Shown: in pieces, positions 25 through 6,729 of the stretch
How positions within the stretch are numbered: the first letter of the stretch is position 1
Layout: every line of letters starts with the position of its first letter
UHGV virus genome: UHGV-0134334
DNA length: 12,902 nucleotides
Source of the DNA: a virus
Strand: one strand, 5' to 3'
Made by a program: the position numbers and the translations under genes
The notes under the pieces: generated by a model
Told to the model about the DNA's origin: nothing
Seen by the model: the letters and a program-made list of their open reading frames with translations, nothing else
The model's database searches: none

Positions 25-767
25 CCCATCGCAAAGTGGAATTAACGCACGAGGGGAAACGTGTTTATTGGGCGCTAAAATCGTCGCTGGATACCCTGAA
101 CCAGGAAATTCTTGATATCAAAAATCAGGAGTTATCGGGAACGTTAACTCTGTATTCCCGGCCCTCTATCGCCCAATGCTGGTTGGTGCCCGCATTAGGT
201 GACTTTACACGCCGGTATCCGTCTATTTCGCTCACCGTGCTCACTGGTAATGACAACGTCAATCTGCAACGTGCCGGAATCGATTTGGCGATCTACTTTG
301 ATGATGCGCCGTCAGCGCAACTCACTCATCACTTTCTGATGGATGAAGAAATCCTGCCAGTATGTAGCCCGGAATACGCTCAAAGACATGCTTTAACCAA
401 CACGGTAATTAACCTGTGTCACTGTACGTTGCTCCATGACAGACAGGCATGGAGCAACGACTCCGGTACGGATGAATGGCATAGTTGGGCGCAACATTAT
501 GCGGTTAATTTGCCGACATCTTCTGGAATTGGCTTTGATCGTTCTGATTTAGCTGTTATTGCCGCGATGAATCATATTGGGGTGGCGATGGGAAGAAAAC
601 GCCTGGTACAAAAAAGGCTTGCCAGTGGTGAGCTCGTCGCGCCGTTTGGCGATATGACGGTGAAATGCCATCAGCATTATTACATCACCACATTACCGGG
701 CAGGCAGTGGCCAAAAATTGAAGCGTTTATTACCTGGCTAAGAGAACAGGTAAAAACCACTTCATAA
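25..767 (+). CDS. dsdC: LysR-family transcriptional regulator DsdC (D-serine deaminase activator), 5'-truncated by the window and adapter
   Basis: The ORF 36..767 translation matches my recollection of the E. coli DsdC C-terminal substrate-binding region. The frame stays open upstream to nt 25 (..SHRKVELTHEGKRVY..), so the GTG at 36 is internal. It lies convergent with torI at about 180 nt, as at the K-12 CPS-53/KplE1 junction. Confidence 0.8.
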
Positions 768-861: not shown

Positions 862-877
862 ATGGTGTCCCCTGCAG
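862..877 (-). other. Prophage attR core: 16-bp copy of the argW tRNA 3' end (CTGCAGGGGACACCAT on the minus strand)
   Basis: The minus strand reads CTGCAGGGGACACCAT, which is the end of the T-stem, the acceptor stem and CCA of tRNA-Arg (argW) as I recall it. Upstream tRNA sequence is absent, so this is a partial copy typical of an att core. Host DNA (dsdC) lies on one side and phage DNA (torI) on the other. Confidence 0.6.
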
Positions 878-950
878 ACATCTACTTGAAGCGGCAGGGG
901 ATTGATTGGAATGGTGTTTTTTAGATGTGAGAAATATTTTACCCGCTATT

Positions 951-1151
951 TTACCCATTGGCGCGGCTTAAGAGCTTATTTTTGAATTCACAATGGTCAC
1001 GATATAACCATCTTGCTCGCCCGTGGATAACTTTGGCTTTAGGCAGGTCGCCGGACTTAATCCGGTCGTAGATGAAGGTCTTACCGAAGCCAGTATCAGC
1101 CATGATGAATTTCAAATCAACCAGTGAATCAGGTTGTAGTTCGTGTTGCAT
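951..1151 (-). CDS. torI: Excisionase / recombination directionality factor TorI (KplE1-type Xis)
   Basis: The 66-aa ORF (MQHELQPDSLVDLKFIMADTGFGKTFIYDRIKSGDLPKAKVIHGRARWLY..) matches E. coli TorI in size and position, directly inside attR and convergent with dsdC. An RBS (GGAGA) sits 9 nt upstream of the ATG. Confidence 0.8.
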   Translation of the reverse strand: MQHELQPDSLVDLKFIMADTGFGKTFIYDRIKSGDLPKAKVIHGRARWLYRDHCEFKNKLLSRANG

Positions 1152-1192
1152 GAGTGCTATCTCCGAATAGGGAATCGAACCTGCAAATCAGG

Positions 1193-1217
1193 CAATAAAA
1201 AACCGCCATCAGGCGGC
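1193..1217 (-). terminator. Rho-independent terminator (minus strand) between the small early-left ORF and torI
   Basis: Minus-strand hairpin GCCGCC-UGAU-GGCGG followed by UUUUUUAUU. It overlaps the stop codon of the upstream small ORF. Confidence 0.5.
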
Positions 1218-1376
1218 TTGGTGTTCTTTCAGTTCTTCAATTCGAATATTGGTTACGTCTGCATGTGCTATCTGCGCCCATATCATCCAGTGGTCATAGC
1301 AGTCGTTGAAGTCCTCTGCTTCGATACGAGCGATTTCCTCTTTCATTCTCGTAGTTAAGCGGATTGATGACATATT
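1209..1376 (-). CDS. Small hypothetical early-left protein (55 aa from the internal ATG; the longest ORF extends to 1442)
   Basis: ORF 1209..1442. The internal ATG at 1376 is preceded by GAGAGG with 7-nt spacing (..GAGAGGAATTAATATGTCATCA..). No recognisable family. Confidence 0.4.
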   Translation of the reverse strand, partial: NMSSIRLTTRMKEEIARIEAEDFNDCYDHWMIWAQIAHADVTNIRIEELKEHQAA

Positions 1377-1438
1377 AATTCCTCTCAAATAAGTGGTTTG
1401 CTGCCAAAACAATGAACCATCCGGAAATTCCAGATAGT

Positions 1439-1666
1439 TCATAATTCACTCTTCAATACTTCCAACTTACTAATCGCCGATAGATATCCGCGCTGATAGG
1501 GAATCATCATTCCTTCGAGCTTGCCACTTCTTAACTCCTCCCTGAGCAATTGTATTGCTTGATCAATAACCTCTGCCTTAGCGTCCTTTATGGCTTGCTT
1601 GCGGGGCTTTGCTTTCTGCTTTGGCAGATTTCTCAAGCATGATGGAATGTATGTCTGATTCATCAC
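1439..1666 (-). CDS. Hypothetical early-left protein (75 aa)
   Basis: ORF directly downstream of and abutting the N-like gene in the same orientation. Basic, with predicted coiled coil. No recognisable family. Confidence 0.45.
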   Translation of the reverse strand: MMNQTYIPSCLRNLPKQKAKPRKQAIKDAKAEVIDQAIQLLREELRSGKLEGMMIPYQRGYLSAISKLEVLKSEL

Positions 1667-4602: not shown

Positions 4603-4899
4603 ATGACACAAGCAAGTTACAGCAAGCCAACACAGCGAGAAATTGATCGCGCTGAAACTGATTTACTCATCAACCTGTCAACGCTTACCCAGCGCGGTCT
4701 GGCAAAGATGATTGGCTGTCATGAATCGAAGATAAGCAGAACGGACTGGAGGTTTATTGCTTCGGTCTTGTGTGCTTTTGGAATGGCATCAGACATCAGT
4801 CCGATTAGTAGGGCTTTTAAGTATGCGCTTGATGAAATCACAAAGAAAAAATCCCCGGCCGCCACCGAGGATTTTAAGCAAATTGATATGCAATTCTGA
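4603..4899 (+). CDS. cII: CII-family transcriptional activator (divergent from lambda CII)
   Basis: 98-aa ORF with a helix-turn-helix region and a C-terminus (..KKKSPAATEDFKQIDMQF) paralleling lambda CII (..KKRPAATERSEQIQMEF), in the syntenic position after cro and nutR. Confidence 0.75.
   Translation: MTQASYSKPTQREIDRAETDLLINLSTLTQRGLAKMIGCHESKISRTDWRFIASVLCAFGMASDISPISRAFKYALDEITKKKSPAATEDFKQIDMQF
4612..4625 (-). promoter_or_regulatory. CII-binding site (TTGC-N6-TTGC) of a pRE-like promoter reading leftward
   Basis: Plus strand GCAAGTTACAGCAA gives TTGCTGTAACTTGC on the minus strand, a direct TTGC repeat with 6-nt spacing at the 5' end of the cII-like gene, as for lambda pRE. A candidate -10 (TAATAT) lies downstream on the minus strand. 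Confidence 0.5.
4855..4881 (-). terminator. tO-like terminator of a possible OOP-type antisense RNA at the cII 3' end
   Basis: Minus-strand hairpin CCUCGG-UGGCGG-CCGGGG followed by AUUUUUUU, encoded by the cII codons for KKSPAATE, the same place as the lambda oop terminator. Confidence 0.4.
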
Positions 4900-5078: not shown

Positions 5079-5970
5079 CATATCTAATCTAGCCGAAGCC
5101 AGAGAGGCCAGAAGGCTACAACAACCGCATCAAAGCAGCGGTAAGGGGTATGCCTTGCTGCACCGTAAAATTATGGATGTGCCGTTTTACAAGGACGCAG
5201 AAGCTGCGCATCTGTGGGTTCACTTAATCCTCAAAGCAAAGCATACGCCTGAGTATGTAATGACTGACGCAGGAGAAATTCTGGTAGGCAGAGGGAAGCT
5301 ACTTGGCGGTAGAAACTCTCTGGCGTTTGAAACAGGACTCAAACCAGATCGCGTTCAGTACCTGCTTAGAAAGTTCAAAAAACTCGGCATGATTGACTGG
5401 GTTTCACACGGTAGATTCTCAGTTTTCTCGGTAGAGAAATATGACGATTATCAGTCAAATTTTGTACCAGCAGATTACCAGCAAATTACCACCTCAAAGC
5501 CAGAAATACCAATGCCTGTAAGCAATACTGTACCAGCAGATTACCAGCAAATTACCACAGATAAAGAATATAATAATATTATCTCTAATACTGACGTATT
5601 AGAGAGTGCCACAGCAGACAAAAAGTCTGACAAGAAAAAACCTTCCGTTAGCTGTCAGGATATTGTCGATGCTTACCACGAAATCCTTCCTGAAGCGCCA
5701 AAAATCCGCGCACTGAATGACAAGCGTAAAAACCAGATCCGAACGTTCTGGCGCAAAGCCGGAGTGATAACCCGCCAGCTTGACGGGCATGGGTTCACGA
5801 TGCAGGACTGGAGAAATTATTTGAGCTACGTAGGCGAAAATTGCCGATGGATGTTCGAAGAACGCCCAAACCATCAACGCGGAACCGTCTGGCACAAAAA
5901 GGGATTTGATTTCCTGCTTAACGACAATACCTACCTGAAAGTTCGTGAGGGTGAACACGATGACCGATAA
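5071..5970 (+). CDS. Replication initiator, lambda O / P22 gp18-like, containing the origin iterons
   Basis: 299-aa ORF in the position of O/gene 18, after cII and before a DnaB-like helicase gene. It has internal iterons plus an AT-rich tract, and a strong RBS (AAGGAG). Confidence 0.6.
5464..5595. repeat. Candidate replication origin: four 12-bp iterons (CAGCAGATTACC / CAGCAAATTACC, twice) followed by an AT-rich tract
   Basis: The 29-bp segment GTACCAGCAGATTACCAGCAAATTACCAC occurs at 5464-5492 and again at 5530-5558, each holding two 12-mer sub-repeats. AGATAAAGAATATAATAATATTATCTCTAATA follows. The arrangement matches ori-lambda, which lies inside O. Confidence 0.55.
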
Positions 5971-6376
5971 TTTTTATGCGCCGCCCCATAGCATCGAGGC
6001 AGAGCAGGCGGTGATTGGTGGATTGCTTCTGGATGATGACAGCAGTGAGCGCGTCCAGAAAGTTCTGGCGATGCTGAAGCCTGATTCATTTTACAGCCGA
6101 CCACACAAAATCCTTTTCGAAGAGATAACCAGAATGCACCGGGAGCAAAAGCCAGTAGATGGCCTGACGCTTTTCGATGAACTGGAGCGTAAATCGTTAA
6201 CGGCGTCTGTTGGCGGTTTTGCTTATATCGCTGAGATCGCAAAGAACACGCCAAGCGCCGCAAACATCGTTGCCTATGCAATGCAGGTTCGCGAAACCGC
6301 AATGGAACGCTACGCCATCAACCGCATGACTGAAGCGACGGAATTGCTCTACGCGAAGGTGAGCAAGTGCAGGTAA
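5960..6376 (+). pseudogene. DnaB-family replicative helicase (P22 gene 12-like), N-terminal domain only, 3'-truncated
   Basis: The translation (..PPHSIEAEQAVIGGLLLDD..FYSRPHKILFEEI..SVGGFAYIAEIAKNTPSAANIVAYAMQVRE..) aligns with the N-terminal domain of E. coli DnaB. The ORF ends after about 138 aa with no Walker A or RecA-like domain. Start ATG at 5960 with RBS GAGGG. Confidence 0.7.
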
Positions 6377-6729
6377 AACGCACTGATGGAATATTCGGCA
6401 CACTTGGTAACTATGTTAGCCAATTATCTAACGGCAAGATGCTGAATAATGAGCAAGTCCAGGACTTAATCAACACCTCAAAACTGATGGCAAATACTGA
6501 AGGCCAAAAGTTTAATCAGCAAATGGATGATTATCTTTCAACTTATGGAGATTCTCTCCCCAGCGGACTAACTAAGCAATTGCAATCCAGAAAAGCCAAG
6601 CTGTATGAAGATATTCAGCAGCCTGCACAACAACAGAGCAATAACCAACAACCGACAAATACCCAACAGCAGCAGAGTCAATCCGGATCATATACCTCAA
6701 AATCAGGCATTCAATTTACGGTGGAATGA
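6367..6729 (+). CDS. Hypothetical Gln-rich protein, possibly the 3' remnant of a P22 gp20-like ejection protein gene
   Basis: 120-aa ORF beginning at the deletion junction and translationally coupled (ATGA overlap) to the downstream 708-aa ejection-protein-like gene. The assignment is by synteny only. Confidence 0.35.

Follow-up and report, generated by a model that had tools for sequence, protein, structure and literature searches.

An argW T-arm copy in the leader of the excisionase gene torI: a candidate control site in KplE1-type prophages

The closest described relatives of the locus studied here are KplE1 (CPS-53) of Escherichia coli K-12, HK620, Sf6 and Kapi1, in which the excisionase is located at attR and the integrase at attL (PMC2951348, PMC8787464). 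The 16-nucleotide (nt) core of KplE1 is CTGCAGGGGACACCAT (PMC2951348), a sequence also annotated as attP core in the records of HK620 and Sf6. The excisionase TorI is a small winged-helix protein with short recognition repeats. Its sites in attL were defined by mutating the pentamers GTTCG, GATCG and GTCCG, and it represses PintS through such GTTCG-type sites (PMC2951348). We have analysed a stretch of 12,902 nt of the virus genome UHGV-0134334 (hereafter the window), which contains the same core, TorI, P arm and torI leader as these systems and, in the leader, the same short copy of the T-arm of the transfer RNA (tRNA) gene argW. This T-arm piece, which we propose to contain a candidate control site of torI, is the subject of the present work. 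The literature found on the KplE1 type describes the 16-nt core, the arm sites and the TorI sites, and leaves a T-arm copy upstream of torI unmentioned.

The layout of the window agrees with the published one, as the initial annotation had recognised from an excisionase placed at attR with no integrase nearby. No integrase open reading frame (ORF) was found in the window, which stops inside the tailspike gene; this is to be expected, since the phages of this group have their integrase at the other prophage end, in the KplE1/HK620/Sf6 type next to an intact argW. The window differs from the four systems by its body, which is a different, internally deleted P22-like remnant.

The attachment core and the T-arm piece

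The sequence of argW was read from an unoccupied locus (L004) as ...GGGCTAATTGCAGGTTCGATTCCTGCAGGGGACACCA then TCCTTGTG. By comparison with this gene, the attR core CTGCAGGGGACACCAT (862-877, minus strand) consists of the last 15 nt of argW and one downstream T; the match to the tRNA announced by the initial annotation is thus real, with 15 nt of the gene instead of 16. The core lies at the junction between prophage and bacterial DNA, and is followed by the same bacterial flank as in the unoccupied argW locus. The T-arm piece TTGCAGGTTCGATTCC (1171-1186, minus strand) matches argW at 16 of 16 positions and includes the 5' T-stem strand, the T-loop and two more bases. It had been placed at 1168-1184; the 14-mer GCAGGTTCGATTCC is indeed present on the minus strand, but at 1171-1184, and the match to argW continues for two bases, to 1186. 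In the L004 gene this 14-mer is situated directly 5' of the core, and the T-arm piece corresponds to the segment immediately 5' of the core, with one C common to both. Fused at this shared C (a 1-nt overlap), the two pieces make up an uninterrupted 31-nt stretch of argW, and both are on the minus strand in the order of the tRNA. This bears out the earlier statements that they derive from argW, abut there and together rebuild its 3' portion. In the window they are parted by 294 base pairs (bp) that hold torI and the P arm of attR. The T-arm piece, the leader and the core are identical in KplE1 of K-12.

The gene torI (951-1151, minus strand) encodes an excisionase (recombination directionality factor) of 66 amino acids, assigned to PHROG 66 ("excisionase and transcriptional regulator"). 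The product shows 100% identity to both HK620 HkaC and Sf6 gp18, in agreement with the name given from the sequence at first. Its ATG is at 1149-1151 and its Shine-Dalgarno sequence GGAG, kept in the aligned leaders, is at 1161-1164 (minus strand), 6 nt downstream of the T-arm piece.

An exact match to the 14-mer is expected by chance about 1e-4 times in 12.9 kb when both strands are considered, and with up to two mismatches shuffled sequences gave a mean of 0.03 matches. In 2.69 Mb of collected loci, a biased sample enriched for torI and argW loci, the 14-mer was found 252 times upstream of torI-like genes and 122 times inside argW, and the only two other matches were both shortened copies of the torI context; in this sample it is thus confined to torI contexts and argW. 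Judged from these comparisons, the resemblance is genuine: the T-arm piece copies the 5' stem strand and the T-loop of argW.

The leader also shows a homology with the pI/xis region of phage lambda. An intrinsic terminator with its T tract (AAGCCGCCTGATGGCGGTTT; 1194-1219, minus strand), which ends an upstream lambda-like small ORF, is common to lambda, HK620, Sf6 and CUS-3. A box resembling a cII site, TTGCCTGATTTGC (TTGC-N5-TTGC; 1183-1195, minus strand), is homologous to the lambda sequence TTGCGTGTAATTGC at pI, and its second TTGC constitutes the first four nt of the T-arm 16-mer. Since the lambda homology spans both TTGC repeats, these four bases belong to the cII box and the tRNA-like part is reduced to AGGTTCGATTCC. 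In the alignment of leaders this is the conserved part (1171-1182, minus strand), and it contains the pentamer GTTCG recognised by TorI (1176-1180, minus strand; pentamer from PMC2951348). The two regions thus share the homologous terminator and T tract, the arrangement TTGC-N-TTGC, the motif GGAGA and the excisionase start. Unlike lambda, the window has ~18 extra nt (AGGTTCGATTCCCTATTC) between the cII-like box and the Shine-Dalgarno sequence, and its attachment site is located between xis and int instead of beyond int. A pI promoter of lambda type has TTGC-N6-TTGC across its -35 region, ahead of the excisionase start or overlapping it, and a CII activator supplied by the phage; a CII homologue is present in the window (4603-4899). 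Over the T-arm piece, the annotations of HK620 show a cII site together with a "phage integration" promoter, and those of Sf6 show pI.

An RNA element, tRNA-like or other, was considered and rejected, the results of ARAGORN, Rfam and RNAalifold being all negative: ARAGORN predicted no tRNA gene in the window, the T-arm region gave neither a tRNA or transfer-messenger RNA match in Rfam at E<=10 nor any significant Rfam family, and no consensus fold was obtained from 14 aligned leaders with RNAalifold. A weak match to the sRNA STnc130 (window 1101-1228, plus strand) scored 24 bits for a gathering score of 55 and is hence not significant; it runs antisense to the start of torI up to the bidirectional hairpin, and the terminator alone probably accounts for it.

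Conservation of the element and its candidate function

The module was compared among TorI homologues of 39-100% identity originating from GTDB genomes, IMG/VR and phage records. The modules of E. coli phages are ~97-98% identical, so that conservation inside this species is uninformative. Colinearity on both sides is found between the window, HK620, Sf6 and CUS-3. A survey of TorI homologues in IMG/VR by alignment query returned only 100%-identical E. coli copies, and the AlpA homologues of Pseudomonas F116 and phi297 have a different gene layout and are not comparable. The element (A/C)AGGTTCGATTCC(C) was detected upstream of the excisionase in Escherichia, Enterobacter, Citrobacter, Serratia, Pantoea, Edwardsiella and Erwinia, in at least 15 diverged modules whose flanking sequences are unalignable.

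From an alignment of 15 distinct modules, with motif-bearing loci partly chosen by the motif itself so that the figures are biased, we observe that GTTCGATT is invariant in 14 and that the mean pairwise identity of the 13-mer is 0.87, against 0.36 and 0.35 for the two flanks. For comparison, the pairwise identity of torI is 0.58 at third codon positions and 0.86 at the other two. The pentamer GTTCG is kept in 14 of the 15 lineages and begins 28-29 nt before the start codon in 13 of the modules (26 and 35 nt in the remaining two). The second TTGC of the cII-like box is absent in most other genera.

The element is also found with distant excisionases. Salmonella phage Emek encodes an excisionase 52% identical to TorI, and its leader equals that of one of the compared modules (L133) at ~32 of 34 aligned positions; in Erwinia phage phiEt88 the excisionase is only 39% identical and the element is present. 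These two cases indicate that the element outlasts the excisionase gene, and the comparison as a whole places the T-arm piece in the conserved int-attP-xis module of the KplE1/HK620/Sf6-type phages. The copy number of the element is 0, 1 or 2, with one copy in most lineages. Two tandem direct copies occur in three distinct leader types (Midgardsormr38/L262/L266, L259 and L132), and one leader (L136) displays the same terminator, the sequence ATTGCCTG and the Shine-Dalgarno sequence with the element precisely missing.

The element is more conserved than synonymous sites, keeps an almost constant distance from the start codon and varies in tandem copy number, with neither a consensus RNA structure nor an Rfam match; together these traits form the signature of a protein-bound DNA site in the leader and promoter region of torI. 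We thus favour, with a probability of about 0.55, the reading that AGGTTCGATTCC is a selectively maintained, candidate protein-bound cis-regulatory site of tRNA origin that would control torI. The protein bound to AGGTTCGATTCC would control the expression of the excisionase and, in the free phage, also the read-through from pI into int.

A neutral origin of the T-arm piece has to be weighed at this point. The piece might be a scar left by an earlier integration, tandem or secondary, or by an illegitimate recombination at TTGC, and be inherited passively with the module. Its junction with the lambda-like sequence falls exactly at TTGC, a 4-nt microhomology between the cII box and the tRNA; prophages in tandem at argW do form hybrid P/P' junctions (the IMG/VR contig L270, described below, is a likely example); and conservation within E. 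coli, where the modules are nearly identical, carries no information. A scar would nevertheless not be expected to be conserved across genera amid randomised flanks, to stay at a near-constant distance from the start codon, to be duplicated in tandem and to be retained in Emek and phiEt88. Moreover, the match to argW 5' of CAGG is limited to the E. coli type, the other lineages having ACAGG or CCAGG. Since all attL junctions obtained from IMG/VR show GCAGG in argW, the idea that the piece was captured anew several times from the host tRNA was rejected. We regard a neutral scar as unlikely: the conservation, the fixed position and the tandem copies argue for an element that is maintained. This does not concern its ultimate source, which would be a tRNA-derived att sequence, in E. 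coli possibly joined to the cII box at the TTGC microhomology. The element is tRNA-derived or tRNA-mimicking, and a duplication or an illegitimate TTGC joining is possible as the source event; a past duplication, or a tandem event as evoked by the initial annotation, is likewise a possible ultimate origin.

TorI itself is the preferred ligand of the proposed control site, on account of the GTTCG pentamer, of its CA(G) context and of the tandem direct copies seen in some lineages. The GTTCG of the element is usually preceded by CA(G), as are four of the five TorI sites of attL (read from the attL sequence). The element would then be an autoregulatory operator overlapping the putative pI/torI leader. 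Vis of P4, Cox of P2 and Apl of 186 are excisionases that also regulate or autoregulate transcription; compared with these, the autoregulation of torI through the element is a candidate only.

The integrase is the second candidate, its core-binding domain recognising an element that would mimic the tRNA side of attB. In its full form, this alternative makes the T-arm piece a third core-type (attB-like) half-site through which IntS would repress torI/pI or help to shape the attP complex. The conserved part is indeed tRNA sequence of the B side of the crossover and reaches beyond the TorI pentamer, TTCGAT is also kept beside the core in most relatives, and the argW core is the only specificity visible as common to the element-bearing modules of TorI type, Emek type and phiEt88. 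The piece is however alone and 270 bp away from the core, and its tandem copies are direct instead of inverted. In addition, mutation of the core altered neither the binding of IntS to attL nor the repression of PintS (Panis et al., PMC2951348), and excision in vitro works without the piece. An integrase half-site is therefore rather unlikely.

The two ligands meet in a further proposal, in which the excisionase would be guarded by a mimic of the T-loop of the target tRNA: GTTCGATTCC flanks the crossover in the tRNA gene and stands again 30 nt before the excisionase start, where it might be read by TorI, whose recognition pentamer is the GTTCG of the T-loop, and/or by the core-binding domain of the integrase. 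We consider this proposal as tentative. The sequence GGTTCGAATCC is an example of a tRNA T-loop that differs from that of argW. In attL, 31 bp (~three helical turns) separate the GTTCG of the T-loop from the one in the first mapped TorI site downstream; the T-loop of the tRNA itself could serve, on the bacterial arm, as a TorI site so far overlooked.

Several observations weigh against the proposed control site or against its reading by TorI, in addition to the bias in the choice of loci mentioned above. The conservation reaches past the pentamer to ATTCC, which is specific to the T-loop and not found in the mapped TorI sites, and phiEt88 keeps the element though the repeats of its P' arm are GTWACC and not GTTCG; both facts fit recognition by the integrase core better (a host factor also, in the case of phiEt88). 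The tandem copies have periods of 13-16 bp, against the 10-bp spacing of the TorI sites I3-I5. About ten related lineages have no element and in another (L250) it is decaying, which indicates that it is dispensable, that is, useful but inessential to the module. A strict scan of the torI leader detected no sigma-70 promoter, and the spacer of the cII-like box is 5 nt long instead of 6 nt in lambda. Finally, the function attributed to the element is deduced from conservation.

Search for an uninterrupted tRNA copy and the CUS-3 record

The initial annotation had also suggested a longer ancestral tRNA copy, borne by attP and split by torI. In this scenario, an attP with at least 31 nt of argW would have received an insertion of the 294-bp cassette (torI and P arm), the left half being now without function. 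In its favour, the pieces are exact neighbours in argW, overlapping by 1 nt, and no coincidence would be required, since an insertion anywhere in a long copy leaves the remaining block of identity as "core". The end-to-start join of the CUS-3 record also has exactly the appearance of the uninterrupted state.

CUS-3 (GenBank CP000711) has the same 16-mer as the window, at the same place relative to the lambda-like terminator. Its record differs from our reading by annotating TTGCAGGTTCGATTCC as the core of attL and attR, while the true core follows at attL, at positions 16-31 of the record. When the end of the record is joined to its start, the resulting attP is colinear with those of HK620 and Sf6 on both sides, minus a clean block of 294 bp, and apparently yields a contiguous 31-nt tRNA copy without torI. 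However, a prophage of strain UTI89 is 100% identical to the last 409 bp of CUS-3 and continues directly with torI, the true attR core and then dsdC (comparison of L005 1-31 and L006 2693-2708 with UTI89 L127 1909-2320). CUS-3 was thus rejected as an uninterrupted ancestral attP, the join being an artefact of the record. A direct repeat of 16 bp, as in CUS-3, is what is expected with torI next to the copy on the right; for an attR that is really contiguous the expected repeat is 31 bp. From these alignments, the record appears to start 15 nt too early, inside argW, and to stop ~310 nt short of the true attR.

A contiguous phage-borne copy was found neither in IMG/VR nor in the complete E. coli genomes. 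The junction of phage flank, T-arm and core gave no exact match in IMG/VR, where at least 120 contigs contain the torI-type junction. Among the matches listed for the contiguous T-loop and core, 112 have enough upstream sequence to be judged, and every one is an attL junction with a complete argW gene; as only full argW genes were obtained among these matches, a long phage-borne tRNA copy was rejected. With a chimeric query, an attR devoid of torI was detected in none of 5,426 complete E. coli genomes.

The relatives with a second T-loop also speak against a split copy. Beside the core, most modules outside E. coli have ..(A/G)(A/T)TTCGATGTATGCAGGGGACACCA.. / ..TTCGATGTATGCAGGGG.., a second T-loop remnant with TTCGAT, so that the two tRNA-like segments overlap and are not complementary halves. 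In E. coli this core-adjacent copy is decayed (GTAGATGTCTGCAGG, with GTAGAT in place of TTCGAT); in the window its remnant is GTAGATGT (878-885, minus strand). In two modules (L134 and L137) there is an overlap of several bases between the upstream piece and the core sequence, and in the Edwardsiella-type leader the upstream piece consists of the whole T-arm with one extra C (GACAGGTTCGATTCC-C-TGTC). Together with the TTGC shared with the lambda cII box and with a conservation far above that of the flanks, these observations make a split ancestral copy quite unlikely. The T-arm piece is better described, as far as the alignments go, as a second, partial tRNA-like segment that overlaps the segment of the core in the T-loop; that it is one half of a split copy is not supported.

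Duplicated tRNA 3' segments are otherwise familiar, since phage-borne copies of tRNA 3' ends restore the gene after integration. The T-arm piece differs from these copies in that it comes from the 5' side of the crossover and is not needed for restoration of the tRNA, and in its position beyond the excisionase gene, at a distance of 294 bp.

The annotation of CUS-3 raises the further question of a working second attachment site. A crossover between the argW T-arm and the upstream piece would excise a phage without torI and leave torI in argW. The 16-mer forms a perfect direct repeat with argW in every lysogen, and it is as the core of attL and attR that the authors of CUS-3 annotated it. The scar predicted by such a crossover (5' half of argW, T-arm, torI) was however detected in none of the 5,426 complete E. 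coli genomes (chimeric query), and neither attR nor attP devoid of torI was found in IMG/VR or in these genomes. The core defined by experiment is CTGCAGGGGACACCAT (PMC2951348), and the attR substrate used for excision in vitro is 135 bp long (PMC3509656). The inner primer of this published attR maps to the window and ends at 974, with the T-arm piece outside of the fragment, which indicates that the piece is dispensable for excision in vitro. For Kapi1, a deletion of the 17-bp core was reported as an attB knockout (PMC8787464). We consider a crossover at the T-arm piece as highly improbable.

Surroundings of the module and meaning of the element

The P arm of attR (878-950, minus strand) is nearly identical in sequence to that of K-12. 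An arm CCCCTGC (894-900) faces GCAGGGG (869-875) in the core, both read on the minus strand, and the resulting inverted repeat CCCCTGC(N18)GCAGGGG (869-900) spans the left edge of the core. Its arms covary in a Rouxiella locus (L139: CCCCTACA...TGTAGGGG), which suggests paired functional sites, or a structure, within attP. Candidate arm-type sites of IntS, as judged from their sequence, are two GGGTAAAAT repeats (936-944 and 948-956, minus strand).

In the IMG/VR contig 3300013002_000116 (L270), the region 1601-2055 links an excisionase of TorI type and a GGGTAAA-type P arm, via the core, to a P' arm of phiEt88 type that carries GTTACC repeats and GGGCATA arm sites. Two different prophages, integrated one behind the other at argW, probably meet here. 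Many IMG/VR provirus contigs (L155, L156 and L159, for example) end exactly 3 nt past the stop codon of torI, which means that automated prophage-boundary calls cut off the P arm and the att core.

On the bacterial side, the intergenic DNA at 768-861 equals at every position read the sequence that follows argW in the unoccupied locus L004. It adjoins the 3' part of dsdC (25-767, plus strand; ORF 36-767), annotated at this place in E. coli genome records. Bases 1-24 (CCCTACACGACGCTCTTCCGATCT) are the 3' part of the Illumina TruSeq universal adapter, and the window thus starts with an untrimmed adapter remnant fused onto the dsdC sequence. On the phage side, the left mosaic neighbour of the recombination module is the small lambda-like ea-region ORF (1209-1442, minus strand; 77 amino acids, PHROG 676).

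The window thus represents the attR end, next to dsdC, of a deleted P22-like prophage. Its body encodes N, CI, CII (a homologue at 4603-4899), O, a helicase fragment fused to ejection-protein genes, Ant and the tailspike. The DnaB-like helicase fragment (5945-6376) is continued directly by C-terminal sequence of an ejection protein of P22 type (6367-6729). This fusion (5945-6729) looks like a large internal deletion with loss of the late-regulation, lysis and head genes, and the prophage is a defective remnant, distinct from KplE1 of K-12.

The locus itself is ordinary: its arrangement has already been described and is identical in K-12. A conserved copy of a tRNA T-loop upstream of the excisionase is not described as such in the literature found, and we regard it as a modest, testable detail of a known system. 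For annotation, the 16-bp argW repeat can be mistaken for the attachment core, as in CUS-3, which cuts the excisionase and the real attR from the annotated prophage; a likely boundary error is thereby flagged in the reference phage record CP000711. For the biology of the family, Panis et al. concluded that KplE1-type prophages produce their integrase constitutively and that the control of excision must reside in the excisionase gene (PMC2951348). The mechanism of control of torI is not stated in the literature found, and the conserved 12-nt element offers a concrete candidate control site. If the tentative reading as a T-loop mimic is true, the production of the excisionase would be tied to the occupancy of att-type sites.

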